IMG/VR virus record: IMGVR_UViG_3300025005_000002
Location: 32,001-96,000 of that record
From: a virus
Direction: 5' to 3' (one strand)
Length of the DNA: 64,000 bases
Made by a program: the position numbers and the translations under genes. The notes under the pieces are model-generated. The model searched no databases. It worked only from the letters and a program-made list of their open reading frames with translations, and was not told the DNA's origin. Below are positions 15,731-40,710 of this stretch, one piece after another (position 1 is the first letter of the stretch; the number at the start of each line of letters is the position of its first letter).

Positions 15731-16568
15731 TTATATATAGAGAGTCTGGTCGTGTACAAGGTCATAATATACTATATATTATAATACGGAGGGGGCCCAA
15801 TTTGGATATACACATATTTTTCACGGAAATAATATAGATTCATGGATAGTGATATAGATTCACGTCTCAGATTATTGTGCGAGGCCATTTTTGCTCTGCC
15901 GTGGTCCTTTGGTGGTAAAAGTAAGATGGACAAAGTTTGGAGTAGATTAGTATATGCTGGATATCTAATTAAGAATTACCAGGAAGTAGTGAAGGTCCAT
16001 ATTTAGTCATGATGTACTTGTGCACGTGTAATAATAATGAAGGTGGAAAGGGTATAAACAAATATATCACCAAATGGGAGGTATGGAGAGCCCTTAGGAA
16101 CGCAGAAATAGCAATGTTAAAATACAAAACAAAAGGAGATAACAAATGATTAAGATCATGATAATCATCTTCGTTTTAATATTTGCCCTATACATTTTAC
16201 GAAAAGTTGCCGAGTACAATTATAAACGGTGGGGTAGATTCGATGAATAAGAAATATCTAAAGTATGATCCGTTACACCAGCAAGGAAAGAGAGGAAGGG
16301 GAAAAAAGGAATGATGACGAAAGAAGCGCCGCCGCGCCAGCGGCGAGGGGAGGGAAGGATGAAGCCGATCAAGGCGTGGGCGATAGGAACATTTTCGGGC
16401 GGTAAACTGTTGGGCATCGTTAGATACCAACTCAAAATGAAGACGAGGGAACCGTGTCTATACCATACCAAGGCTGACGCGCTCCGTGATGTCGAAATTG
16501 CCCTGCCGGAGGATATAACCGCTCGCCCCGTCCGCGTGACGATCACGGTGGAGGAATAGGGGGGAGAG

Positions 16569-17213
16569 ATGATGGAAAGATGCGGCAAATGCGGGATGGT
16601 AGAGGAAAGTTCAATCCACGACATCAACAGTCCAGATACAGAAATACGAAGGGTGGCGCATCACTTCGAGTTGGTAGCCCCATGCCCTCGATGCGCCATA
16701 AAGGACGCCGCCCTCGCCGCCGCCAACGCCGAGAAGGACTTCTGGAAGTCGCACGATAAAGATGCCGACATTGTACGCGATTCCTACAACAAGGCCATTG
16801 AGGAAAGCGATCTTATTCGCGCTGACCTCGCCATCGCCAAGGCCGAGCTGACACGGCTGCGGGAGGCGATTGGGTGGGCAGAGTCTCACGCCCAAATATA
16901 CGCCACTGTCGGCGGATATAGATACGTTGATTTCGCATCCGAACTACGTCGCCGCGCCGGCGGCGAGGGGGAGGGCGGAATGATGTGGTGGTGCTGTTCC
17001 GCAGACTATCCCGATCACGATGAGAATTGCAAAGGAGGTGAGGGAAGGATGACGAGTGATCTTACTTGTGAGGATTGCGGGAGGGAGTTGCAGTTTGGCG
17101 TGGATGGGGTTTGTCGGTGTGGGAAACAACTATGCTTTGACTGTCACGAAAAGAATCACAAACGTTGCTATGAGATACCGGTACCTGGTGTGAAGGTCCC
17201 GGTGGGGGAATAG
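16569..17213 (+). CDS. Cys-rich / coiled-coil phage hypothetical protein
   Basis: RBS GGGGAG; modules AALAAANAEK, AELTRLREAIGWA, SELRRRAGG. Confidence 0.6.
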   Translation: MMERCGKCGMVEESSIHDINSPDTEIRRVAHHFELVAPCPRCAIKDAALAAANAEKDFWKSHDKDADIVRDSYNKAIEESDLIRADLAIAKAELTRLREAIGWAESHAQIYATVGGYRYVDFASELRRRAGGEGEGGMMWWCCSADYPDHDENCKGGEGRMTSDLTCEDCGRELQFGVDGVCRCGKQLCFDCHEKNHKRCYEIPVPGVKVPVGE

Positions 17214-17221
17214 GAGGGGAC

Positions 17222-17458
17222 GTGGACACTATAAGTTGTCAGCATGGCAATCTCGCCCGGTCCTGCGAAATCTGTGCATTGATCGCCGAGCGGGACGCGC
17301 TGAGGGAGGAAAACACCCGGTTCCGAGAGAAGCTGGACCGGGAGAAGATGGCGAAGATATTATGCGGCGGCAGAATGCGATGGAACGGGCTGTTCGAACT
17401 CACCCGCGACGGGTACAGAAGCGATGCCGACGTCCTGATCGCCTATCTTACCGAGTAG
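17222..17458 (+). CDS. Small phage hypothetical protein
   Basis: RBS AGGAGGGG; FREKLDREKM..YLTE module. Confidence 0.6.
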   Translation: MDTISCQHGNLARSCEICALIAERDALREENTRFREKLDREKMAKILCGGRMRWNGLFELTRDGYRSDADVLIAYLTE

Positions 17459-17469
17459 GAGGGGAACAT

Positions 17470-17778
17470 ATGTTACACCCGAACACAGGAATTGATCTCG
17501 GCAGGGAGGCTGACGAGGTTCGCAAGGAGAACGCCTCCTTTCGCGCCGCCCTCGCCGCCGCCGACGCGGAGCTGACGCGGCTGCGGGAGAGTAACGCGAG
17601 TCTGCTTGAAGGACTAAAATGCGTTGCCGACTTCGCATCCATGCCGCCCCGCGTAAGCCATGGCGCAAGTAACGGGAAGGATGAAATAGACAAACTGATC
17701 GCGGACATCGCCCTCGATTTATTGAAGCGGGTTGAATATAGATTGAGCCGCGCCGACGGCGAGGGGAGGGAAGGATGA
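17470..17778 (+). CDS. Coiled-coil phage hypothetical protein
   Basis: Likely start ATG 17470; RAALAAADAELTRLRE module. Confidence 0.55.
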   Translation: MLHPNTGIDLGREADEVRKENASFRAALAAADAELTRLRESNASLLEGLKCVADFASMPPRVSHGASNGKDEIDKLIADIALDLLKRVEYRLSRADGEGREG

Positions 17779-18023
17779 GCATTAATTGTGGATCGTGCGG
17801 AACGCCGTTGTACCACATTGACGAAGCCTGCCCGAATTGTTTGGCCGGGTCTCGGCTTGTCGATAGGCCACCAACACACCATATTCTCCCATGCCCCCAA
17901 TGCGCCCGCTTCCGAGAGAAGTTGGACAGGGAGAAGATGATTGAAACGGTGCTCGCGGGAACGAAAGGGGTATGGACATACGATACCCTTACCGATTTCC
18001 TTATTAAATATCTCACCGAGTAG
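17775..18023 (+). CDS. Zinc-finger phage hypothetical protein
   Basis: CGSC, CPNC, CPQC; FREKLDREKM..YLTE module. Confidence 0.6.
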   Translation: MSINCGSCGTPLYHIDEACPNCLAGSRLVDRPPTHHILPCPQCARFREKLDREKMIETVLAGTKGVWTYDTLTDFLIKYLTE

Positions 18024-18032
18024 GAGGAAACA

Positions 18033-18917
18033 ATGTACCAAGTATGCACGTGCCCGCAGTCGAATCTTACGGACGGGGATCCACATTGTTCCGTTCATGG
18101 GCAACCGTCGGAGTATAAGACTTATTCGTATTGCGAATCCTGTGTCGCCCTCCGCGCCGACCTCGCCGCCGCCAACGCCGCCAAAGAGGAAGAACAGAAG
18201 CGAAAGGAGTATTACCAAAATATCGTCTATGCGGTATGCAACGTACTCGATAAAATAAACGGATCGGCAATATGTTGCGGTACGAAAGACACTCCAACAA
18301 ATGAAGTCCAGGAAGCGATGTGCAGTCTGCAATCGAGATTGGCGGAACACACTCGCTGGGTATTACTAAATGCTGTTGATAAGAACGCATTACAGGAAGC
18401 GGAGGCCCACGCCAAGCGCCTTGAGGAATATATGCTCAAGGGCGTCGCGTTCAGGGATGAACTGCAGGCCCGCGTGAAAGAGTTGGAGTGCCAGAAGAAA
18501 GCACTCCAGCAAGTGAACGGGGAAACGGAATACAGGTTGTGCATGATACGGGAGGCGATAAAACGGAATGTAATAGACGCGCCAGACTTGCAGGCGGGAA
18601 ATATGAACGAAGCATATTTGGCATCTCTTGAATTGCAGCGTAGGAAAGAAGCCCTTACTGAAGCATACACCTCTTCCCCCCCATGCCGACACGAAGAGGA
18701 AGCGAAGCGGCTGAGGGAGGAATCACAAAGTGGGTTGGCGATGACTTCCTGCCCAGTCTGTGAGAGTGATGGCGCAAACACAAATGAATACAGGATCAAC
18801 AAGGAAATACACCGGCTACGGGAGGCGGTGGAATGGGCGCTTGGCATGTTGGATGACAATTGCGATCGGAGGTATATCCAATCCGAACTCCGCCGCCGCG
18901 CAGGGGGTGTCGAATGA
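18033..18917 (+). CDS. Coiled-coil phage hypothetical protein
   Basis: RBS AGGAGG; RADLAAANA, RLREAVEWA and SELRRRAGG modules. Confidence 0.65.
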   Translation: MYQVCTCPQSNLTDGDPHCSVHGQPSEYKTYSYCESCVALRADLAAANAAKEEEQKRKEYYQNIVYAVCNVLDKINGSAICCGTKDTPTNEVQEAMCSLQSRLAEHTRWVLLNAVDKNALQEAEAHAKRLEEYMLKGVAFRDELQARVKELECQKKALQQVNGETEYRLCMIREAIKRNVIDAPDLQAGNMNEAYLASLELQRRKEALTEAYTSSPPCRHEEEAKRLREESQSGLAMTSCPVCESDGANTNEYRINKEIHRLREAVEWALGMLDDNCDRRYIQSELRRRAGGVE

Positions 18918-18942
18918 TCGCCGCCTACCTGAAGGAGGGAAA

Positions 18943-19242
18943 ATGATGACGAAAACCGAGTGGAAGGATTTCGAGCGGGTTGAGCATCTGGCTGATGCCG
19001 TGGATAACCATGGCGTCGGATTCGGGAACCCACCAATGGATGACCAGATGGCTAGAACTATCCTCGCCGCCTATCGGGAACTGAAGGAACGCCGGGAGGA
19101 CGAAGAGTGGCTGAAAAAGCATTACGCTGATCTTATCTATCGTAATGACGGTGCGGTCAGTCTCCATGCGGCAGGAATAATCGGCAGGGCTATAGGACCC
19201 ACCCTCCACGACGCTGTGGACGTCGCCCGGGGAGGAAAATGA
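18943..19242 (+). CDS. Hypothetical protein
   Basis: RBS AGGAGG before ATG 18943. Confidence 0.55.
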   Translation: MMTKTEWKDFERVEHLADAVDNHGVGFGNPPMDDQMARTILAAYRELKERREDEEWLKKHYADLIYRNDGAVSLHAAGIIGRAIGPTLHDAVDVARGGK

Positions 19243-19354
19243 TGACGTTGCAGATGCTGTGGCTAACCGTTGTTGTCATAGTGGGGTTCGCATATGTGAT
19301 TTACTTATTGTGTAGGATATTTGATGCGATCAACGCCGCACGGGGGAAATAAAG

Positions 19355-19639
19355 ATGCTGAAGGAAGAGAGAGTATTCCGCCTGCGACTCAAGAAATTGT
19401 GCGGTATTGCCAACTGCGACCCACGCCCCATTCTTCGAGAACTAACATGGGTCGTGAAAGCCGTCCGGGAGGACGATGCGAAAGTGGTTGAAGGATGCGG
19501 AAACGACGAATTATATGAAGCCATCTCTGATGCTGTCCGGAAGGGGAAGCCGGTGCAACAGTGTACGTATTGCGGCTTAATGAAAGAAAATATTACGTCC
19601 AATGGTGAATGCAGAACGTGCCGCGCTGCGCATATATAA
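19355..19639 (+). CDS. Hypothetical protein with C-terminal CxxC pairs
   Basis: CTYC..CRTC. Confidence 0.5.
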   Translation: MLKEERVFRLRLKKLCGIANCDPRPILRELTWVVKAVREDDAKVVEGCGNDELYEAISDAVRKGKPVQQCTYCGLMKENITSNGECRTCRAAHI

Positions 19640-19848
19640 CCGTCTTCCGCGTTAAAGGAGAATGGGGATGTCTGAAATAAAGATTAGTTGTAATCAACAA
19701 GTTACGGCATTCCTTTACCAAGCCATGATGTATTTGAATCGTCGGCGGCATATGTCCCTTGCTCTGACAACCAATTTTCGCATAAGGGTAAGGCTACACA
19801 ATTTGTGGCAAAGGGTACACGGGTTATCATAACATGAGAGGAGAAAAT

Positions 19849-20103
19849 ATGAAAATAAGAAAGGGTGATATATATGAGGATTGTGCGTTTCACCCGGTGA
19901 GGTGCGAGTATATAAATGGCGATGATATCGAAGGGGTGTCATTACTTGATGGGTCCCGACCGCGCAGATGCAGTATACGGCATTGTGGGGTACGCAAAAT
20001 GACCAAGGATGAAGCGGCAGGTACAATTGCGATTTATGGGCAAGGAGGGGAGCAGGGTTTGTGGGAATATAAAAAACAACAAAGGAGTAACAAAGTAAAA
20101 TGA
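19849..20103 (+). CDS. Hypothetical protein
   Basis: RBS GAGGAG; coupled to next gene. Confidence 0.55.
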   Translation: MKIRKGDIYEDCAFHPVRCEYINGDDIEGVSLLDGSRPRRCSIRHCGVRKMTKDEAAGTIAIYGQGGEQGLWEYKKQQRSNKVK

Positions 20104-24396: not shown

Positions 24397-24945
24397 ATGA
24401 AAATTTGTTCTCATTGTAAAATTGAAAAACCTAGGAGTGAATTTCATAAACACAAAGCAAATAAAGATGGGTTAAACTATTGGTGTAAACCCTGCAATCG
24501 CACAGCAATTGGACAGTACCGGGCCACACCAAAGGGGGAAGAAGTAAAGAGAAAAATCAAGAAGAAGTACCGGACTACACCAAAGGGGAAAGAAGAAAAG
24601 AAAAAATCAGACAAGAAATACTGGGTTACACCAAATGGGAAATTATCTAAAAGAAAAGGAAAACTAAAACAAAAGTATAATATTACTCTTAAGGATTACG
24701 ATAAGATGTTAGAGACTCAAGGTGGGGTTTGCGCCATTTGTGGTACTGATAAACCAGGAGTTGGGTTTAATCATTTTCTTGTAGATCACGACCATAAAAC
24801 TGGTAAAGTTAGAGGTTTGCTTTGCAATATATGTAATATAATATTAGAGTATCCAAATGGACCTATTATGGATGGCATTCGATCCGCTTCTGTTGATTTA
24901 ACTGAGAGATATCTAAATATTATTAAGTATTTAAATAACAGATAA
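24397..24945 (+). CDS. Endonuclease VII / HNH-type homing endonuclease
   Basis: N-terminal CSHC..CKPC; YNITLKDY..QGGVCAICG..VDHDHKTGKVRGLLCNICN. Confidence 0.9.
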   Translation: MKICSHCKIEKPRSEFHKHKANKDGLNYWCKPCNRTAIGQYRATPKGEEVKRKIKKKYRTTPKGKEEKKKSDKKYWVTPNGKLSKRKGKLKQKYNITLKDYDKMLETQGGVCAICGTDKPGVGFNHFLVDHDHKTGKVRGLLCNICNIILEYPNGPIMDGIRSASVDLTERYLNIIKYLNNR

Positions 24946-28782: not shown

Positions 28783-30462
28783 ATGGATGATAATGCAAAA
28801 CTGATGGAGGCCTTGGAGGTTATGAAGAAAAACCTCATTGAGGCCAAAAAAGTTATTATGGCACAAGAAGAGGTTTTGGATCAATTTCGTACCCCCCCCT
28901 TTCTTCAAGGTATCGTTATTGGTGGCGTTACTGGGCAGATAGAGTGGTCTAAGTTTGTTAAGGGTTTAAAGGTAAAACTTCGTAGGGATTCCAGTTTTGC
29001 CCATCAGAGTACAGTCCCCGGAGTAATACAAAAGATTGATGAGAGTGGTTGGGCTCAAGTCTTGTGGGATAACGGTAGTTCTAATTCGTATCGTACCGGT
29101 AAACCTGGGACTGACGAAGGTGTATGTGACCTTGAATTTGCTGAAAATTCACTTGGTGAAGAAATTTGTGTGCTTGAGGGTTCGTCGGTGCATTATGCCC
29201 AAAAGCCATATATTAGGGTAGAATTAGGCGATACGGTAACTCTAAATCCGATGACGAAGCAGGTAATTGGTGTCGTGGCTCCGGTGATATCTGGGGAGAT
29301 CCGATATGTTAATAAGGTGATATCAGATGAATTGGTGGAAGTCTCTCACCAGGATGCATCCAAAGTAGTACTCACTGGGAAATTTGCCAAAAAGATGGAA
29401 AAAGGGGACCGTGTTATTGTCGATAATACTGCAACAATTGTCCTGAACAACCTGGGAAAGGACGAGACAAAGTTTGAGGTTAAAACTTCATCAATGTCAA
29501 TCAACTGGGATGATATTGGTGGGTTGGAAGATGCAAAGAGAGAGATGGTCGAAATTGTGGAACTTCCTCATAAGTATAGCAATTTATATAAGTTTTATAA
29601 CAAGAAACCGGCAAAAGGGATCTTGTTGTGGGGCCCTCCTGGTTGTGGTAAGACCATGCTTGGAAAAGCAGCAGCTACTGCAATGGCTGCTATTCATAAG
29701 CAGAATGGCAATGGAAGCGGATTTCACTATATCAAGGGACCCGAGATCCTGGACAAATATGTGGGTGTGGCAGAGGCCACAATTCGCAGGATCTTCGAAA
29801 ATGCCAAAAAACACAAGGCTAAGAACGGGTTCCCTGCTGTAGTATTTATTGACGAAGCCGACGCCATCCTAGCTAGGCGTGGTTCTGGTATCAGTTCGGA
29901 CATAAATAATACCATCGTCCCGATGTTTTTGGCGGAGATGGATGGTATGGAAGAGTCTGGTGCACTGGTATTGCTTGCGACCAATAGGGCCGATGTACTT
30001 GATCCCGCAGTAACACGTGATGGGCGAATTGACAGGAAGATAAAAGTCACAAGGCCTACAGTGAAGTCTGCTGCTGAGATTTTTATGATCGCCTTAAAGG
30101 GCGTTCCCACCAATAAGGATATACCTAAGGTGGTACTCTCACAGAAGGCTTCTGAATCATTGTTTTCCGATACCAGAATATTATATGAGATTCGTACTAA
30201 AAGGGGTGGCATGATTCCGTTCACACTTAAGCAATTGGTGAATGGGGGGATGGTGGTCGGTATTGTGGATCAAGCGATTTCAATCGCTATCCACAAAGAC
30301 ATTAAGAGGTCAGCAAAGACTGGGGTATGTGAAGAGGATATAATGATGGCGATTGACAAGATTGAGGCACAGAACTGTGGGCTCAATCATAACACTGAAT
30401 TGGAAGAAGTTGTTGCTGGTTTTCGTGAAGATGTTACAAATATTATTCCTATAAGGAGGTAA
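28783..30462 (+). CDS. arc: ARC/Mpa-type proteasomal AAA+ ATPase
   Basis: N-terminal coiled coil ending TPP; WDDIGGL; Walker A GPPGCGKT; IKGPEILDKYVG; Walker B FIDE; RGSGISSDINNTIVPMFLAEMDG closely follows the ARC/Mpa consensus; RDGRID. Likely start ATG 28783. Confidence 0.88.
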   Translation: MDDNAKLMEALEVMKKNLIEAKKVIMAQEEVLDQFRTPPFLQGIVIGGVTGQIEWSKFVKGLKVKLRRDSSFAHQSTVPGVIQKIDESGWAQVLWDNGSSNSYRTGKPGTDEGVCDLEFAENSLGEEICVLEGSSVHYAQKPYIRVELGDTVTLNPMTKQVIGVVAPVISGEIRYVNKVISDELVEVSHQDASKVVLTGKFAKKMEKGDRVIVDNTATIVLNNLGKDETKFEVKTSSMSINWDDIGGLEDAKREMVEIVELPHKYSNLYKFYNKKPAKGILLWGPPGCGKTMLGKAAATAMAAIHKQNGNGSGFHYIKGPEILDKYVGVAEATIRRIFENAKKHKAKNGFPAVVFIDEADAILARRGSGISSDINNTIVPMFLAEMDGMEESGALVLLATNRADVLDPAVTRDGRIDRKIKVTRPTVKSAAEIFMIALKGVPTNKDIPKVVLSQKASESLFSDTRILYEIRTKRGGMIPFTLKQLVNGGMVVGIVDQAISIAIHKDIKRSAKTGVCEEDIMMAIDKIEAQNCGLNHNTELEEVVAGFREDVTNIIPIRR

Positions 30463-30465
30463 GTT

Positions 30466-30693
30466 GTGAGTGCACAGGAGCAGATTAAGAAGAGGTCGCA
30501 TAAAGGCGGTGGGGGGGGCGGTTCTAATGATTTTGACGGTCTTGGGCTTGAAATGGCCGTTATCCCCGGCGTTGATGAAGTGTTACGCAATTTAGATAGT
30601 GATATTAAGAATGTTGGTGGGTTGATTAATAGGACACAGGAAAGGATTAATCAGAGACAGGACCGGCGTCCTTCGCATAATTGTGAATGTTAA
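30466..30693 (+). CDS. Pup-like small protein (no C-terminal GGE/Q; ends CEC)
   Basis: MSAQEQIKKRSHKGGGGGGSNDFD versus Pup MAQEQTKRGGGGGDDDD; VDEVLRNLDSDI versus TDDLLDEIDDVL; RBS AGGAGGT directly after arc. Confidence 0.6.
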   Translation: MSAQEQIKKRSHKGGGGGGSNDFDGLGLEMAVIPGVDEVLRNLDSDIKNVGGLINRTQERINQRQDRRPSHNCEC

Positions 30694-30709
30694 TTTTGGA
30701 GGTGGCACA

Positions 30710-31045
30710 ATGTTTAATGGGCTGCTTGTTTGTTTAATACTGGCTGGTGCGGTGGCATCAATTTCTTGCTCCATTAGTAAGGCTGGGGTTATGAGACCCA
30801 TCAGGCAATGGGTCCGTAAAAAGAATGCATGGCTTGGTAAACTTGTGTCCTGTGTATATTGTACTAGCCACTGGATATCAGCGATATTAGTTATAATTTA
30901 TAGGCCAATCCCGTTGCGTTTAGTACAACCAATTGATTCAATAGTTGCCATATTTTTGATAGTGACTATGGCAGCTGGGATGATTTATTGGATTGATTGG
31001 TCTATTGGTTTTCAACCAGATCCACCACAAGAGGGTAATCAATGA
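30710..31045 (+). CDS. DUF1360-like membrane protein
   Basis: Hydrophobic helices with LVSCVYCTSHW (CxxC-x-x-x-W); RBS GGAGG before ATG 30710. Confidence 0.6.
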   Translation: MFNGLLVCLILAGAVASISCSISKAGVMRPIRQWVRKKNAWLGKLVSCVYCTSHWISAILVIIYRPIPLRLVQPIDSIVAIFLIVTMAAGMIYWIDWSIGFQPDPPQEGNQ

Positions 31046-31911
31046 GGGTACATCCAGATTCGGTGGTTGCTTTAAAAGAGGCCTATTTCAAGAATAAACC
31101 CGAATTATCTAGGTTTGTGGCTGGTCGTTTAAAGGTCAACAAACAAACCGTTGTTGGTGTACATGCCAAGCATTTTAAGGAGGTATGTAAGGTACTAAAA
31201 TTACCAATAAGTAAGTTAAAAAGTAGTCGTACTGTATATCGTGGAGTGTATATGGCTACAGTAGACGAATCATTTAAGTCAAAACTGAAAGATAAAAGAC
31301 AAGAAATGCGGCAAAAATATATTGAAATAGCTAGTGGTTTAAGGTCAAAAAAAGCAGTGGAACACCTAAAACATGCGATACATGATCAAGAAGCACGCAT
31401 CCACGCGATTCAAATAGATTTGGTAAATAACCTAAAAAATCTTGAGGGGAAAAATAGAGAATATAAAGTAATTTGTGAAGGTGATCAGGGTACCACAGAA
31501 AACAAAGGTGTTGAATTTGATAAGTTAATGGCTAATCCTGATATAGTAAGGATATTTATAGATGATAATTATTTTACTGTATGGACTAGACCTATTTATA
31601 TTAAGTATAATAATAAGATATATGATGTTGGTGAATTTAAAATAGTATTAGCAATTAACCCTACGGAATTTATAGTAAAAATGCGTAATTTGACCAGAAA
31701 GATTAAAGGTTATGCTCATCCACACATACGTAATAATGGGCGGCCATGTCTTGGTAATATCCAAGAATGTTTACCTCAAATGATTGCAGCACGGCAATTT
31801 GCAGCCGCTATTTTTGTATGTATTCAATATTTAAAATCAGTTAATGATAGTGGATATTATGTAAATATTCACAATTGGCCTTTAAAAATGGCAAAGAGAA
31901 GAGGGAAATAG
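31042..31911 (+). CDS. Coiled-coil plus prokaryotic E2/UBC-like conjugating domain
   Basis: HPHIRNNGRPCLG has the UBC spacing HP(N/H)I-x3-G-x2-CL including the catalytic Cys; upstream GEFKIVL strand. Confidence 0.75.
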   Translation: MRVHPDSVVALKEAYFKNKPELSRFVAGRLKVNKQTVVGVHAKHFKEVCKVLKLPISKLKSSRTVYRGVYMATVDESFKSKLKDKRQEMRQKYIEIASGLRSKKAVEHLKHAIHDQEARIHAIQIDLVNNLKNLEGKNREYKVICEGDQGTTENKGVEFDKLMANPDIVRIFIDDNYFTVWTRPIYIKYNNKIYDVGEFKIVLAINPTEFIVKMRNLTRKIKGYAHPHIRNNGRPCLGNIQECLPQMIAARQFAAAIFVCIQYLKSVNDSGYYVNIHNWPLKMAKRRGK

Positions 31912-31945
31912 GAAAGAGATATCAAGGTAAGATTGGGGTATATTA

Positions 31946-32578
31946 ATGGATACAATTCTAATGCGTCGAAAATATATAGATCTAGTTAGTGGTAATAGAT
32001 TAAATAAGATAAAGAAGCTGGAACGGTTAATGCGTGATAAAGAAGAGCACGTTGTTGCGGCCCAAATTGATTTGGTAAATTATATTAGAGATCTTGAGGA
32101 AACAAGGACTGAATACCAGGTAGCCCGTATTGATACACCAGAGTTTGCGGAAATTAAAGGTATAGAATTTGATAGATTAATGACCCATCCAGACATAGAA
32201 GGTTTATTAATAGATGAAAATTATATTACTATATTTACTGGGCCAATTTATATTGAATATCACAATAAAGTGTATGATATTGGTAAATTTAAAATTGTTT
32301 TATCAATTAATCCGAGGAATTTTATTGTAAAAATGCAAAATTTGACCAGGTCATTAAATGGTACAGCTCATCCACATGTGTATGAAAATGGAGATCCATG
32401 TCTTGGTAATATCCAAGAATGTTTACCTCAAATGATTGCAGGGTATCAATATGCAGCAGCGATTTCAGTGTGTATCCAATATTTGAAATCAGTTAATGAG
32501 GATGGTGGACATCGTTCAAAGATCACAAATTGGCCTTTAAAAAAGGCTAAGAAAGAAGAGGAAAATGACAAAAAGTAG
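31946..32578 (+). CDS. Coiled-coil plus prokaryotic E2/UBC-like conjugating domain (tandem paralog)
   Basis: HPHVYENGDPCLGNIQECLPQMIA; near-identical blocks to 31042..31911. Confidence 0.75.
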   Translation: MDTILMRRKYIDLVSGNRLNKIKKLERLMRDKEEHVVAAQIDLVNYIRDLEETRTEYQVARIDTPEFAEIKGIEFDRLMTHPDIEGLLIDENYITIFTGPIYIEYHNKVYDIGKFKIVLSINPRNFIVKMQNLTRSLNGTAHPHVYENGDPCLGNIQECLPQMIAGYQYAAAISVCIQYLKSVNEDGGHRSKITNWPLKKAKKEEENDKK

Positions 32579-33308
32579 ATATTATGATGGGTATTTAAAT
32601 GGAGATTATGGGGGTGGTTGGGATGGTATGTATGTACACACACCTGCTCCGGCCAGGCCCTTGGTACCACACGTAGCAGAAACAAAAGTGGAACGTCTGG
32701 GTGCAAATGAAATCCCAAATATCCTTATTTCTATAGAGGCCCTTCGTGATATGAATTATATCATGCAGGAGAGTGGTACTGAAGAAATATCATGGCTTGG
32801 GTCTGTGAAAGAGACTGAGAATGGTGGGTATTTAATCGAGAAAGTATTTTTATTTAAGCAATCAGTAAGTTATGAACATACCGAAATTGATCAGAACAGT
32901 GTCAGCCAATTTTATATTGACATGCTCAAGGCCAACCCAAACAACAAGGCTATGTTGAATCGTATTCTCTTCTGGGGACATGTTCATCCTGGTAGTTGGG
33001 TTGGACCATCTGCACAGGATGAGAATCAGATGGATCTGTTTGCGCACAATAAATATTTTATCCGTGGGATATTTTCCAGAGAAGGGCACTGTTCTTTCAC
33101 GTTCTTCGATTACGAACGTAAGTTGAAGATTGTTGATTGCCCATGGCAAATCGATGTTAAGGTTGGCCATGATGAAAACCGCAGGAAAGAAATCGCCAAA
33201 GAGATTAAAAAGAAGGTAACTCATGGAGGAGGGTATATATGGCAAGGGACAAAGGGGGAAGGCTGGTGGAAGGAAAAGGACAAGAGCCTGATTTCTGGCG
33301 ACAGTTAG
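32565..33308 (+). CDS. JAB/MPN+ (JAMM) metalloisopeptidase
   Basis: EEISWLG..HVHPGSWVGPSAQD fits E-x(n)-HxH-x7-S-x2-D. Confidence 0.88.
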   Translation: MTKSRYYDGYLNGDYGGGWDGMYVHTPAPARPLVPHVAETKVERLGANEIPNILISIEALRDMNYIMQESGTEEISWLGSVKETENGGYLIEKVFLFKQSVSYEHTEIDQNSVSQFYIDMLKANPNNKAMLNRILFWGHVHPGSWVGPSAQDENQMDLFAHNKYFIRGIFSREGHCSFTFFDYERKLKIVDCPWQIDVKVGHDENRRKEIAKEIKKKVTHGGGYIWQGTKGEGWWKEKDKSLISGDS

Positions 33309-33940
33309 ATATCTTTTCGCCAACGAAGTTTAAGACGCCAGTTACTGTAATTGGCGCGGGTGCTACGGGCTCATACATCACTATGCTCCTTGCCAAAATG
33401 GGATGTAAGGATATTACAGTGTATGATGATGATGGAGTAGAGAATTACAATCTACCGAATCAAATATTTAGGATTAAGGATATTGGGGCCAAAAAAGTCC
33501 ATGCTATAGCTGAAATGGTGTTGGATGCAACCGGTGTTAAGATCAAAGCAATCCCCAAAAAATTCACTGGAGGACCGTTAAAGGGAATCGTTTTTGTTCT
33601 TACTGATACTATGAAAAGTCGGAAACAGATATGGGATAAGTCAGTGAAATATCAACTAGCCGTTGATCTATTAATTGAAACCAGGATGGAGGCTGAGGGA
33701 GGGAGGATATACGTAGTTAAGCCAACAATTCCTGCGCAAGTGGAGGCGTATGAAAAAACACTCTATTCAGACGAGGAGGCTGAAGAATCTGTGTGTACAC
33801 GTCGCGCTATTGCTCCTACAGTAGACACAATCGCTGGGATGGCAGTATTCTCTATGCTCAATTTCGTTAACAACAAACCATTTCCAAATGAAATAATTTT
33901 GTCGTTGTCTCCGATGTTAATCATCAATAAAAAATTCTAA
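33239..33940 (+). CDS. E1-like ThiF/MoeB-family activating enzyme
   Basis: WRQ, VIGAGATG, VYDDD, NLPNQ, TDTMKSR and the Cys in ESVCT; no Zn-binding CxxC pairs. The true start may be slightly downstream. Confidence 0.9.
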   Translation: MARDKGGRLVEGKGQEPDFWRQLDIFSPTKFKTPVTVIGAGATGSYITMLLAKMGCKDITVYDDDGVENYNLPNQIFRIKDIGAKKVHAIAEMVLDATGVKIKAIPKKFTGGPLKGIVFVLTDTMKSRKQIWDKSVKYQLAVDLLIETRMEAEGGRIYVVKPTIPAQVEAYEKTLYSDEEAEESVCTRRAIAPTVDTIAGMAVFSMLNFVNNKPFPNEIILSLSPMLIINKKF

Positions 33941-33954
33941 GGAGGATTAGAACA

Positions 33955-34185
33955 ATGACTGAGTCTAACAAGGGTGAGAATATTATTACCATCGGCAAGA
34001 TCCCAGGTCAGCTGCATGAACTGGCAATTGATGGGAAGAAGAAGATCTGCGAGTTATTTGGTCTGATTGGGATTAAGGATTTGGGTAGCTGCGAGATCCA
34101 GAAGAACGGGAACAGCGCCGAAGTTAACGAATACGTCGAGGCCGGGGATACGGTTTTGGCGGTGGCCAAGATTCGTGGAAACTAA
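33955..34185 (+). CDS. Ubiquitin-like (beta-grasp) protein
   Basis: 76 aa; pattern IITIGKIPG..EIQKNG..VEAGDTVLAVAKIRGN; RBS AGGAGG; directly after E1. Confidence 0.8.
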   Translation: MTESNKGENIITIGKIPGQLHELAIDGKKKICELFGLIGIKDLGSCEIQKNGNSAEVNEYVEAGDTVLAVAKIRGN

Positions 34186-34909
34186 AACTGCGACGCACCC
34201 TACTAAGAGAGATAAATATGGGGTATATATAGAACTTGCTAACAATGTAGTAGAAGATTGGATAGCAAGAAAATATATCCCAACCATAAAAGAATTTGCG
34301 CCATATACAAGTAGGGATATTAAAAATATGCTGTCTGTAATTGCTTTCAGGTCTATATATGTTAAAAATATTTCGTGGGCGATTATAACCTGCGAAATAA
34401 TCCAGGATTTTGTATATGTGTGCAGAAAGCTTGGGGTAACCACATTGGTTGATGCTGGATGTGGGCATGGTGTATTGGCCCACGCATTGCGAGAAAAAGG
34501 TCTCGCGGTTGACGCTATAAACGCGGACAAAGATAAGTATCATGAAATCTACCGGTCATGGGGTAATGTTATAAGGGGGGATGCTGTTAAATTTATTGAA
34601 GAAAACGTCAATAAATTTGATGGTGTAATTTTATCATGGCCCCCATATGATGAATCTTTTGCGACAGAGGTAGTAAATGTAATGCGTACTGGTCAGTTAT
34701 TGTTTTATTGTGGTGAAGGAAGAGGTGGGTGTACTGGGGACAAATATTTTCATGGTGCTCTTGATGATTGGTATGATTGGGGCGATGATAAGGTGGAGCC
34801 TCCTCCAATAACATTTGCTTTCTTAAAAGAAGAGTCTGAGCGTATAAATAAGCATTTCTTACAATTTCTTAATATACATGATCGTTGGAGGGTTTATATT
34901 AAGAAATAA
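34175..34909 (+). CDS. Class I SAM-dependent methyltransferase-like protein
   Basis: LVDAGCGHG motif I, VILSWPPY, YCGEGRGGCTG; GTG 34175 overlaps the Ubl end. Confidence 0.75.
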   Translation: METKTATHPTKRDKYGVYIELANNVVEDWIARKYIPTIKEFAPYTSRDIKNMLSVIAFRSIYVKNISWAIITCEIIQDFVYVCRKLGVTTLVDAGCGHGVLAHALREKGLAVDAINADKDKYHEIYRSWGNVIRGDAVKFIEENVNKFDGVILSWPPYDESFATEVVNVMRTGQLLFYCGEGRGGCTGDKYFHGALDDWYDWGDDKVEPPPITFAFLKEESERINKHFLQFLNIHDRWRVYIKK

Positions 34910-35183: not shown

Positions 35184-35897
35184 ATGATAATGGCACTAGT
35201 ACTTGGGGATGTTCATGGTAGGTATGATAAGGCCAAAGCCTTTTTAGAATATAAACCAGAGATTTTACACGTTTTTGCTGGTGATTATGTCGATTCCTTT
35301 AATCAGCCCGATGCAATTATTTACGGAACATTAAAGTTGGTAATTGAGTCAGACGCAAAGTTATTGCTTGGTAATCACGATATTCATTATCTGGATGGAT
35401 CGCCATTTAGATGTTCAGGATATAGACAACACACGGCCAAATCACTTAATCAGATTTTTGAATCGTTCATCGAACGATTTGTGCCAGCTTTTGTAGAGGA
35501 TGGGTTTGTTATTATCCATGGTGGGATTTCTAATGGGTTGGGGAATAGCCTATTTAAAACAACAAACGTTACCAATATTTTAGATATAATCAATTCTGAA
35601 TGGGATTTTTTTTTAAAGAATAGAAGACACCATTACCCACAACAGAGTAGAATATTTTATATACCAAAATCTCGTGGTGGTTCTAATGGATATGGGGGGA
35701 TATTTTGGGCAGATTATCGAGATGAAGAATTTTATGGTGTCCCACAGGTATTTGGTCATTCTAAAACATCTAACGGAGTAACCCAAGTATTGTCAAACCA
35801 TTGGGCTCTTGGATGTGATGACGAGAAGTTTGAATGTTTTAATACGGCCACAAAAGAGGTGGAATATTTTGGACCCACCATTCAAGATGCAGCCTAA
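35184..35897 (+). CDS. Calcineurin-like metallophosphoesterase
   Basis: GDVHG, GDYVD, GNHD, HGG and GHS motifs. Confidence 0.9.
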   Translation: MIMALVLGDVHGRYDKAKAFLEYKPEILHVFAGDYVDSFNQPDAIIYGTLKLVIESDAKLLLGNHDIHYLDGSPFRCSGYRQHTAKSLNQIFESFIERFVPAFVEDGFVIIHGGISNGLGNSLFKTTNVTNILDIINSEWDFFLKNRRHHYPQQSRIFYIPKSRGGSNGYGGIFWADYRDEEFYGVPQVFGHSKTSNGVTQVLSNHWALGCDDEKFECFNTATKEVEYFGPTIQDAA

Positions 35898-36568: not shown

Positions 36569-37063
36569 ATGTCTACCAGACCAATTCTAAGATCAGTTAT
36601 ATTATTAATTAGTACTGTATGTCTTAGTTGGTCTATCTATGGATTTATGACCTCAATCCCACAACCAGTGACACGAGTAGCAGCGATTAATAGAGCGCAA
36701 CTTGCTTTATATAAGGTCAAAGCGCCACCAGGTAAAATAAATGACCTAAGTAAAGCAGTGACAAACGCATCAGCCATGACTGATCTTTCTCCGGAATTAA
36801 TTGTGGCATTAATGAAAACAGAATCCGAATTTAATTATAAAGCAGTATCGAATAAGGGATATAAGGGATTAATGCAAACACCATGGGCTACGTTTAAGTG
36901 GGCTAGTGTGGACACATTGCATGGTGCTGAGATTTTGCGTGAGAAGTTGCGGTATAGTAGAGGCGATTTAAAGCTTGCACTTGCCTTATATAAAGGCGGG
37001 AATAACGAAGCAGCAAGAGCATATGCAACAGAAACTTTTGCTTTGTATAAGAGGTTACTTTGA
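36569..37063 (+). CDS. Lytic transglycosylase (SLT) with N-terminal membrane anchor
   Basis: ALMKTESEFN..AVSNKGYKGLMQ..ALALYKGG; hydrophobic N-terminus; RBS AGGAGG. Confidence 0.85.
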   Translation: MSTRPILRSVILLISTVCLSWSIYGFMTSIPQPVTRVAAINRAQLALYKVKAPPGKINDLSKAVTNASAMTDLSPELIVALMKTESEFNYKAVSNKGYKGLMQTPWATFKWASVDTLHGAEILREKLRYSRGDLKLALALYKGGNNEAARAYATETFALYKRLL

Positions 37064-40302: not shown

Positions 40303-40380
40303 GCCTCCATAGCTCAATTGGGTAGAGCATTCGCCTTATAAGCGAAAGGTTGGTTGGTTCAATTCCACCTGGAGGCACCA
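40303..40380 (+). tRNA. tRNA-Ile(UAU)
   Basis: Acceptor GCCTCCA/TGGAGGC, D arm AGCTC..GAGC, anticodon stem TTCGC/GCGAA with loop CTTATAA, T loop TTCAATT, encoded CCA. Confidence 0.88.
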
Positions 40381-40393
40381 ATATCGCTGGGAG

Positions 40394-40645
40394 ATGCTCT
40401 ATCCTAATTGTGGGGTTGATAGTATCTCCTCTGCTACCATGGGTAACATCTCCCAGCGATACCAAAAGAAAGGAGTATCAGAAGATAAATGCTACAAATG
40501 TGGTGTAACAGATTGGATGGGAGAGCCATTAAGCAAACATCTTCATCATAAAGATGGTAATAATGAAAATAACGTAAGAGAGAATCTAGAAAATCATTGT
40601 CTAAAAACATATGCCAAGATAAAGGGGGAGTGGCGGAATTCGTAG
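40394..40645 (+). pseudogene. Degenerate HNH endonuclease remnant
   Basis: CYKCGVTDWMGEPL..HHKDGNNENN..NL, lacking the final CPNCH. Confidence 0.55.
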
Positions 40646-40710
40646 ACGCAAGGGCCTTAAAAGCCCTTGGCCTTAGGGCCGTGAGAGTTCAATTCTCTCC
40701 TTCCACACCA
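40624..40710 (+). tRNA. tRNA-Leu(UAA)
   Basis: TGGCGGAAT..AGACGC D arm, AGGGC-CTTAAAA-GCCCT anticodon arm, long variable arm, GAGAG-TTCAATT-CTCTC, CCA end; one acceptor mismatch (G2:A71). Confidence 0.8.

Follow-up and report, generated by a model that had tools for sequence, protein, structure and literature searches.

The 64,000-nucleotide stretch of DNA analysed here (the window) corresponds to bases 32001-96000 of the 178,008-bp IMG/VR virus record IMGVR_UViG_3300025005_000002, which derives from an uncultured phage and was rated 92% complete. A nine-gene cluster in this window very probably includes a complete ubiquitin-like conjugation cassette, with predicted E1 (activating), E2 (conjugating) and JAB (deconjugating) enzymes and a ubiquitin-like protein (Ubl). 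Directly upstream of the cassette is a trio of genes for an ARC/Mpa-like AAA+ ATPase, a small protein ending in Cys-x-Cys and a DUF1360 membrane protein. The explanation that we favour, with some reserve, is that the phage encodes a self-sufficient Ubl pathway and that the trio may well act on its products.

A preliminary description of this region had reported nine co-oriented, closely spaced genes in the order ARC-type ATPase, Pup-like protein, DUF1360-like membrane protein, E2-like, E2-like, JAB, E1/ThiF, Ubl and methyltransferase. Number, orientation and order were borne out by the open reading frames (ORFs), their coordinates and their conservation in relatives. The nine genes are located on the + strand at 28783-34909, as are all sizeable ORFs, and all of them are genuine ORFs; since they are conserved in relatives, they are not chance ORFs. 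Neighbouring genes are spaced by -70 to +34 nt, the majority of them overlapping by 4-14 nt. The successive gaps between the ATPase, small protein, DUF1360 and E2A genes are +3, -11 and -4 nt, with start/stop codon overlaps running from the small gene to DUF1360 and from there to E2A. The accessory trio thus appears, from its gene packing, to be translationally coupled and directly upstream of the Ubl cassette.

The E2 enzymes are encoded by three paralogous genes. E2A and E2B, both in the cluster, are 57% identical, and E2C, which lies outside it, is 41% identical to E2B (4.8e-43) and retains the HPH...PCLGN motif. E2A has, besides a ubiquitin-conjugating (UBC) core with the same motif, a long helix and an additional domain at its N-terminus, and E2C has a long, acidic, Gly-rich C-terminal tail. 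The AlphaFold model of E2B (predicted local distance difference test score, pLDDT, 85.7) has an N-terminal helix of ~60 residues (3-61) followed by a UBC core (64-200). Almost all of the Foldseek rows shown for this model were ubiquitin-conjugating enzymes (probability up to 0.99, E about 1e-2), and alignment with Ubc13, UBE2S and UbcH10 in VIA-align gave Z values of 6.0-6.6, with a root-mean-square deviation of about 4 Å and ~116/147 residues aligned. The UBC fold, on which the preliminary description had made its proposal depend, was thus recovered by the model, Foldseek and VIA-align, and we accepted it for the E2-like proteins as a model-based assignment in which Z is moderate and which leans on the motif too. 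The canonical E2 active site is HPN-x7-C, with the same spacing as the HPH-x7-C found here, and the E2B sequence HPH-VYENGDP-C shares both this spacing and the central Asn-Gly with it. The residues HPH-x7-C-L-G-N were invariant in an alignment of 34 E2 sequences (A1).

Another enzyme of the cassette is a predicted JAMM peptidase that would process and deconjugate the Ubl. In an alignment of 52 relatives, residues E74, H139, S149 and D152 of JAB were invariant and H141 was conserved in at least 90%; the family as a whole has 3033 representatives at E <= 1e-3. A JAB profile searched against the PDB matched solely BRCC36 and a protein deposited as 26S proteasome regulatory subunit N11-like, with the motif aligned at weak E values of 0.08-0.75. 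The Prok-JAB profile matched 5 of the 52 relatives (best E 0.0013), and the PADLOC match to the JAB of the window was weak (E 0.016). Profiles built from four JAB or four Ubl sequences gave nothing useful against the PDB, and the genomic context of two more distant JAB relatives showed little or nothing.

The E1 is a single adenylation domain matching Pfam ThiF (PF00899, 1.6e-23, 83.6 bits against a cut-off of 28.1), and its profile matches in the PDB were TcdA, MccB, ThiF and Uba1. In the alignment of its homologs, GAGATG was invariant, as was Cys186 within EESxC[TS]RRAIAP, a residue that we take to lie in the crossover loop by comparison with MoeB/ThiF. The Ubl was modelled as a single beta-grasp (AlphaFold pLDDT 81.4), with Foldseek matches to Mth1743, MoaD, SAMP1, NEDD8 and ubiquitin (probability 1.00, template modelling score 0.57-0.70). 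Its Gly75 was conserved in at least 90% of 37 homologs and was followed by 1 to about 16 variable residues; most of these homologs end in K-I-R-G-N, and some have up to about 15 more residues. One of the homologs (P0061, 136 aa) is a tandem head-to-tail di-Ubl joined at KIKGN-Q, like a polyubiquitin precursor. Gly75 would be exposed by cleavage for adenylation.

The E2 and Ubl folds, the JAMM residues and the ThiF match together sustain the earlier statement that the phage encodes a complete E1/E2/JAB/Ubl set. The catalytic motifs then quoted could also be read from the proteins: HPH-VYEN-G-DP-C in E2B, HPH-IRNN-G-RP-C in E2A, HVH-PGSWVGP-S-AQ-D in JAB, and GAGATG plus Cys186 in the E1. Several observations count against this prediction. 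The E2-like proteins had no match in Pfam (E up to 10), PHROG, PADLOC or NCBIfam, and the E2 family profile reached no E2 among PDB sequences, only coiled-coil noise. The JAB of the window had no Pfam match, in addition to its weak PDB profile matches. The E2 and JAB assignments come from models and motifs, and Cys186 is a candidate thioester cysteine.

The ThiF-type E1 and the beta-grasp Ubl might alternatively constitute a sulfur-carrier system, in which the pair forms a ThiS/MoaD-like thiocarboxylate and not protein conjugates. Such a system would suit an E1 of the minimal ThiF/MoeB type, whose best NCBIfam matches are ThiF models (below their cut-offs), and a Ubl whose model matches MoaD and related beta-grasp carriers as well as ubiquitin. 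However, E2 paralogs with invariant HPH...PC, one to about ten of them, and a JAMM peptidase are found with the pair in every case, and the Ubl would have to be trimmed at its C-terminus and can occur in tandem, as polyubiquitin does. Neither a rhodanese, a cysteine desulfurase nor a cofactor-synthesis gene was found among the Pfam matches of the surrounding genes, and we regard this alternative as highly improbable.

Among characterized conjugation systems, the cassette shows most of its likeness in gene content to BilABCD (Type I '6d' and Type II CEHH/'6c'; PMC10557695; Iyer 2006, PMC1779556). Both comprise Ubl, E2, JAB and E1 with adjacent E2-JAB-E1 genes and no E3, and in both the Ubl has a conserved Gly and a short variable tail expected to be removed by JAB. 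For BilA, exposure of the conserved Gly by the JAB enzyme BilC was shown experimentally (PMC10557695). In contrast, the BilABCD E1 has two domains (inactive and active adenylation domains, IAD+AAD) with a helical CYS insertion, whereas the phage E1 is a 233-aa single adenylation domain. The BilABCD E2 has the CEHH or a His-after-Cys pattern, whereas the phage E2s have HPx upstream of the Cys and a long N-terminal helix. Unlike in BilABCD, the E2 gene is multiplied (three copies in the phage), and the carriers are genomes of the candidate phyla radiation (CPR) and DPANN and large phages. PADLOC gave only the weak JAB match and a weak Cap2-type E1 match, and no other model matched. The cassette is predicted to work like BilABCD, yet it is without the features that define membership in that group.

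The first gene of the trio supports the earlier statement that an ARC-type ATPase is encoded directly upstream of the Ubl genes. Its product matches Pfam AAA (2.3e-32), and its best NCBIfam model was TIGR03689 pup_AAA (4.1e-89, 299.6 bits, residues 146-541), compared with 187 bits for CDC48 and 176 bits for PAN. The TIGR03689 equivalog cut-off of 504.75 bits was not reached. Mpa was the best among the PDB chains matched in a single stretch (5kwa, 1.9e-57, residues 147-523). Walker A (GPPGCGKT), the pore loop (KYVG) and Walker B (FIDEAD) are intact. The protein is organized as an N-terminal coiled coil, Pro-Pro, a small MIB/HERC2-like barrel, an oligonucleotide/oligosaccharide-binding (OB) domain and the AAA module. 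A profile of the N-terminal 240 residues matched the Mpa coiled-coil/OB fragment 3m9b (1.8e-4), with an alignment covering the coiled-coil end, the Pro-Pro and the first strand and a second segment in the OB region; ARC (2wfw) and PAN N-domains were also matched.

The barrel is located at window positions 28950-29170 (residues about 57-128), between the coiled coil and the OB region, where it replaces or interrupts the first OB domain of the Mpa/ARC layout. It matched the domains of HECTD1 and MIB1 at 1e-3 with the N-terminal profile and Pfam at 2.3e-4, and the motif GW..V.WD.G..NSYR.G is common to the barrel, HECTD1 and MIB1. Elsewhere, the MIB/HERC2 domain is characteristic of E3 ubiquitin ligases of eukaryotes. 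Compared with Mpa/ARC of Actinobacteria (TIGR03689; PDB 3m9b, 5kwa, 7px9), the phage ATPase shares the coiled coil, Pro, OB, single AAA module and aromatic pore loop, as well as a small, probably disordered or helical protein encoded beside it. It differs in scoring below the equivalog cut-off, in having the MIB/HERC2-like barrel at the position of the first OB domain and in its C-terminus, IPIRR (VAVRR and TPVRR in relatives), which is without the GQYL docking motif. The genome company is also different: no Pup, PafA, Dop or 20S was detected and the partner protein ends in Cys-x-Cys. Judged by these comparisons, the protein is best described as ARC/Mpa-like and not as an ARC ortholog.

The second gene of the trio had been called Pup-like, a designation that did not hold at the family level. 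Conserved features of its product are an N-terminus rich in Gly and basic residues, an [IV]D[DE][VI]L helix in the middle of the chain and a Cys-x-Cys at the C-terminus (CEC, CDC, CSC, CGC). Six close homologs were found, all in related phage contigs beside the same ATPase and DUF1360 genes, and a 63-aa counterpart ending in SCGC is encoded between the ATPase and DUF1360 genes of a Saccharibacteria contig (L027, see below). Neither the protein nor the six-frame translated genome matched Pfam Pup even at E up to 10, and the protein had no match in NCBIfam, to Pup chains in a profile search of the PDB, or in the protein atlas. For direct comparison we used the M. tuberculosis Pup sequence, which was verified to be identical to PDB 7px9_G. 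A single hhalign comparison aligned residues 3-24 of the small protein with Pup 2-19 (probability 59%, E 9e-5), and the probability dropped to 15% once more distant family members were added; BLASTP against Pup gave E 0.65. Neither the Gly run nor the internal GG is conserved, and there is no GGQ/GGE end. The internal GG was also considered as a hidden ubiquitin-like cleavage site and rejected, because distant homologs have NF or other residues there. The likeness to Pup is limited to ~18 N-terminal residues, and there is little chance that the small protein is a true Pup homolog.

These data bear on a second alternative, namely that the cluster is a true Ubl/Pup hybrid in which the 75-aa protein is a divergent Pup that, alongside the Ubl, becomes linked to targets and brings them to the ARC ATPase. 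The gene does follow immediately after an ARC-type ATPase, its N-terminus (M-x-AQEQ-basic-Gly run-acidic) resembles Pup in the hhalign segment, and its [IV]D[DE][VI]L helix is reminiscent of the Mpa-binding helix of Pup. A precedent for coupling is in print, since one sentence in Kaur et al. 2020 (PMC7159879) reports Ubl-conjugation systems coupled to Pup-conjugation systems in Thermofonsia/Planctomycetes. The preliminary statement that Ubl and Pup/ARC pathways are normally separate was, for bacteria, overstated. Set against the hybrid are the missing profile matches, the fall in hhalign probability, the unconserved glycines, and a C-terminus that is Cys-x-Cys and not GG[QE]. Searches of the full 178-kb record with the profiles of Pup (PF05639), PafA/Dop (PF03136) and 20S (PF00227) gave no match, although control genomes matched, so that the earlier observation that no 20S, PafA or Dop is visible in the window extends to the whole record. 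Membership in the Pup family is, on these comparisons, largely refuted, and we consider the hybrid quite improbable. Because the Pup part is unsupported, the cluster would represent one tagging system with an ARC-like motor and not two fused tagging chemistries.

The DUF1360 protein has a conserved C-x-Y-C-x-S-x-W motif, common to the gene at 30683-31045 of the window and to that at L027:8266-8631. The latter is 41% identical and is likewise placed after the small protein. This motif and the Cys-x-Cys of the small protein could form a joint metal or redox site.

Relatives of the cassette were searched for in cellular and viral genomes. The E2 family is small (33 clusters in 5.8 billion proteins); the GenBank phage collection, searched with the DNA of the region and the E2B protein, yielded nothing, as did an IMG/VR scan with E2B peptide words, and relatives were recovered instead with an E1 alignment. 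The E2-JAB-E1-Ubl cassette occurs in cellular contigs labelled Saccharibacteria, Parcubacteria or Patescibacteria, and one Aenigmatarchaeota metagenome-assembled genome (MAG) has the E1 and one E2 only. The E1 subfamily was present in 3/401 sampled genomes of the Saccharibacteria/Parcubacteria/Patescibacteria phylum, and E1 identity between the phage and its CPR homologs from MAGs is 62-72%. Six other IMG/VR contigs, found with the E1 alignment, carry related cassettes or parts of them. The order is E2-JAB-E1-Ubl-E2-E2 in one phage contig (L016); in two others (L017 and L018) it is E2-JAB-E1, and additional E2 genes lie downstream at a distance of a few kb. The cassette is a rare, so far unnamed family of CPR/DPANN genomes and several large-phage lineages.

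The largest E2 expansion was seen in the 1.17-Mb JGI contig Ga0606642_0000002 (L004, 9227-20861), where ~ten near-tandem E2 paralogs follow JAB-E1-Ubl. Two other genes, one for an AAA ATPase of another type and one for a nucleotidyltransferase, break up this array. The AAA gene was considered as an ortholog of the phage ATPase and rejected, its identity being ~30% over the AAA core only and its N-terminus being different. The first E2 paralog of the array is without the catalytic Cys and may be similar to ubiquitin E2 variants (UEV-like).

The linkage between the cassette and the trio was then compared among these relatives. The preliminary description had made its proposal depend on linkage of the arc and small genes to the Ubl genes in related genomes, and such linkage was found in three related phage contigs (L006, L009 and L010), in which the ATPase-small-DUF1360 arrangement is kept, and, reordered, in L027. 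The latter contig, from a Saccharibacteria bacterium with a tiny genome, is chromosomal and is flanked by genes for RNase Y, HU and alanyl-tRNA synthetase (AlaRS). Its gene order is E2 (445 aa)-JAB-E1-Ubl, two small uncharacterized genes, the ATPase, the small SCGC protein and DUF1360, and its ARC-like ATPase (587 aa) is 44% identical to the phage enzyme over the full length. The same trio is thus beside the same cassette in phage and chromosome, with the order of the modules reversed and identities of only 41-44%, an arrangement that is hard to explain by inheritance of a single one.

The proximity of trio and cassette might also be fortuitous, in which case a functional Ubl cassette would merely sit beside a separate ATPase/small protein/DUF1360 module. 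That module might, for instance, act on membrane or virion proteins as a chaperone or remodeller, or inhibit the proteostasis of the host. Several findings point in this direction and away from coupling. The other cassette-bearing IMG/VR contigs have no ARC-like ATPase within 10 kb, and two 100%-complete phage genomes with the cassette (189.6 and 188.0 kb) have none anywhere, holding only an unrelated 302-303-aa AAA protein ~40 kb off. In four CPR genomes with the cassette (G006, G008, G105 and G195), ATPase matches were confined to the AAA core, and the AAA gene of the L004 array is, as described above, of another type. Conversely, ARC-like ATPases stand alone in two Saccharibacteria MAGs (G007:C12:5803-7512 and G009:C7:11245-12888); they are full-length, 37-48% identical to the phage enzyme, and include the MIB/HERC2-like insert. 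A promoter/terminator scan gave no signal above shuffled expectation and no operon boundary, and the term operon can therefore be inferred only from gene packing. Since the genes of this phage are tightly packed and run in a single orientation, adjacency alone is weak evidence, and the linkage of cassette and trio comes from two independent arrangements only.

In contrast, separate modules would not account for the reversed arrangement of L027 or for the start/stop overlaps that run from the small gene through DUF1360 into E2A. Moreover, within about 8 kb of the two stand-alone ARC-like genes there is neither a DUF1360 nor a CxC protein gene, so that the full trio would be specific to the copies linked to the cassette. 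We give the separate-module explanation a substantial, though less than even, chance. Since an ARC-like ATPase is missing from the neighbourhood of most cassettes, the motor is dispensable for the Ubl pathway, and the linkage between them is facultative. Facultative functional coupling of the cassette to the unfoldase trio is evenly poised in our judgement, because of the L027 trio and the overlaps into E2A. The earlier claim that a Ubl cascade is joined to an ARC/Pup module therefore stands in part: an ARC-like motor is adjacent, facultatively and absent from most copies, and the Pup component falls away.

Returning to the self-sufficient Ubl pathway that we favour, the following sequence of events can be proposed. 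The JAMM peptidase would cut the 76-aa Ubl behind its conserved Gly (KIRG|N), so that the residue or residues beyond it are lost. The minimal ThiF-type E1, presumably a homodimer, would adenylate this Gly and probably transfer the Ubl onto Cys186. The Ubl would then move to the catalytic Cys of one of the three E2 paralogs, predicted HPx-x7-Cys UBC cores each with a long N-terminal helix and differing appendages. No E3 was recognised, and the E2s would themselves attach the Ubl to lysines of the targets, whose choice probably lies with the paralogs; JAB could also reverse conjugation. The trio, composed of a putatively hexameric unfoldase, an adaptor-like small protein and DUF1360, may well recognise and unfold or extract Ubl-tagged proteins. 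The unfoldase would work without a dedicated protease, because no 20S gene was detected and the ATPase is without the docking motif. For the biological role, host takeover, rival-phage exclusion and counter-defence are all conceivable, as pure inference.

A more detailed proposal is that of a proteasome-independent 'tag-and-extract' pathway in CPR bacteria and some of their large phages. The MIB/HERC2-like entry domain of the unfoldase would read the tag or the target, and the small adaptor would hold the motor at the membrane, with its central helix binding the ATPase coiled coil as in Pup/Mpa and its Cys-x-Cys and the CxxC motif of DUF1360 together forming a site for a metal or a disulfide. 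The phage copy would strip or remodel host or rival-phage proteins during infection. That all of these elements hold jointly is unlikely.

The proposed combination of tagging and unfolding resembles eukaryotic Cdc48-p97 and the archaeal SAMP/Cdc48/proteasome pathway, in which a ring ATPase unfolds tagged proteins. The E2 motif and the JAMM peptidase of the phage resemble the classical type of eukaryotes and archaea. However, the phage ATPase is of the single-ring ARC type, whereas Cdc48 is a double ring, and no Ufd1/Npl4-like adaptors were found in the phage. A bacterial parallel is provided by Kaur et al. 2020 (PMC7159879), who describe prokaryotic E1/E2/JAB/Ubl sets joined to an AAA+ machine and read as tagging plus unfolding or degradation, including FtsH-ternary Ubl systems with RING-type E3. 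Those systems are cellular, with a RING-type E3, a Ubl-E2 fusion and a real Pup-conjugation set; unlike them, the phage showed no PafA/Dop, RING or fusion. The literature searched, with limited coverage, contained no description of a phage-borne complete E1/E2/JAB/Ubl cascade or of a phage ARC-like ATPase.

To our knowledge, the Ubl conjugation described so far in bacteria serves to defend the host against phages (Bil, CBASS Cap2/Cap3, Bub). A phage with its own full cascade, if confirmed, would show that bacterial viruses also use ubiquitin-style tagging, and the tools would here be several paralogous E2s of the classical HPx-Cys type and an E1 of the smallest kind. Its facultative junction with an ARC/Mpa-like unfoldase without a protease partner could offer a compact prokaryotic model for the coupling of tagging to unfolding, a transition at the heart of how the ubiquitin-proteasome and Cdc48 pathways arose. 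Confined as it is to CPR/DPANN episymbionts and large phages, the cassette also gives a hint of which hosts these phages infect and of mutual gene flow, on which the E1 identities given above also bear.

The coordinates of the cluster genes and of E2C are given in Table 1.

Table 1. Predicted genes of the cluster and the separate E2C gene, in window coordinates.
Feature	Coordinates	Strand	Remarks
ARC/Mpa-like AAA+ unfoldase, 559 aa	28783..30462	+	ATG preceded by GGGGAGG ribosome-binding site
Small protein, 75 aa	30466..30693	+	GTG after AAGGAGG, 3 nt past ATPase stop
DUF1360 membrane protein, 120 aa	30683..31045	+	Pfam DUF1360 1.8e-7; phrog_781
E2A, predicted long-form E2, 289 aa	31042..31911	+	Paralog of E2B; HPH...PCLGN
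E2B, predicted short-form E2, 210 aa	31946..32578	+	AlphaFold UBC core, catalytic Cys152 (predicted)
Predicted JAMM/JAB metallopeptidase, 247 aa	32565..33308	+	JAMM residues, weak profile matches
ThiF/MoeB-type E1, 233 aa	33239..33940	+	Pfam ThiF 1.6e-23; true start perhaps downstream of 33239
Ubl, 76 aa	33955..34185	+	AlphaFold beta-grasp; C-terminus KIRG then one Asn
Probable class-I S-adenosylmethionine (SAM) methyltransferase, ~244 aa	~34175-34909	+	Start probably GTG 34175; weak matches
E2C, third predicted E2 paralog, 308 aa	22514..23440	+	5 kb upstream of cluster

The last gene of the cluster had been listed as a methyltransferase, and this was upheld to the extent of weak class-I matches (MetW 6.7e-4 in the Pfam/NCBIfam searches; phrog_19090 5.9e-15). 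No counterpart adjoins the cellular or other phage cassettes compared, so the gene appears to be a neighbour for which no conserved link to the Ubl cassette was found.

Elsewhere in the window, a ~4-kb stretch (16001-20000) has a GC content of 0.50-0.53, compared with about 0.31-0.43 for the genome, and may be a recently acquired island; its ORFs (16569-17213, 17236-17778 and 18033-18917) had no Pfam match, and no tandem repeats were found in the stretch. Further genes near the cluster that could be annotated (24397-24945, 35184-35897, 36569-37063 and 40303-40710) comprise endonuclease VII (1.6e-22), a calcineurin-like phosphoesterase (1.3e-11), an SLT lytic transglycosylase (9.4e-11), and the tRNA genes tRNA-Ile(TAT) and tRNA-Leu(TAA).

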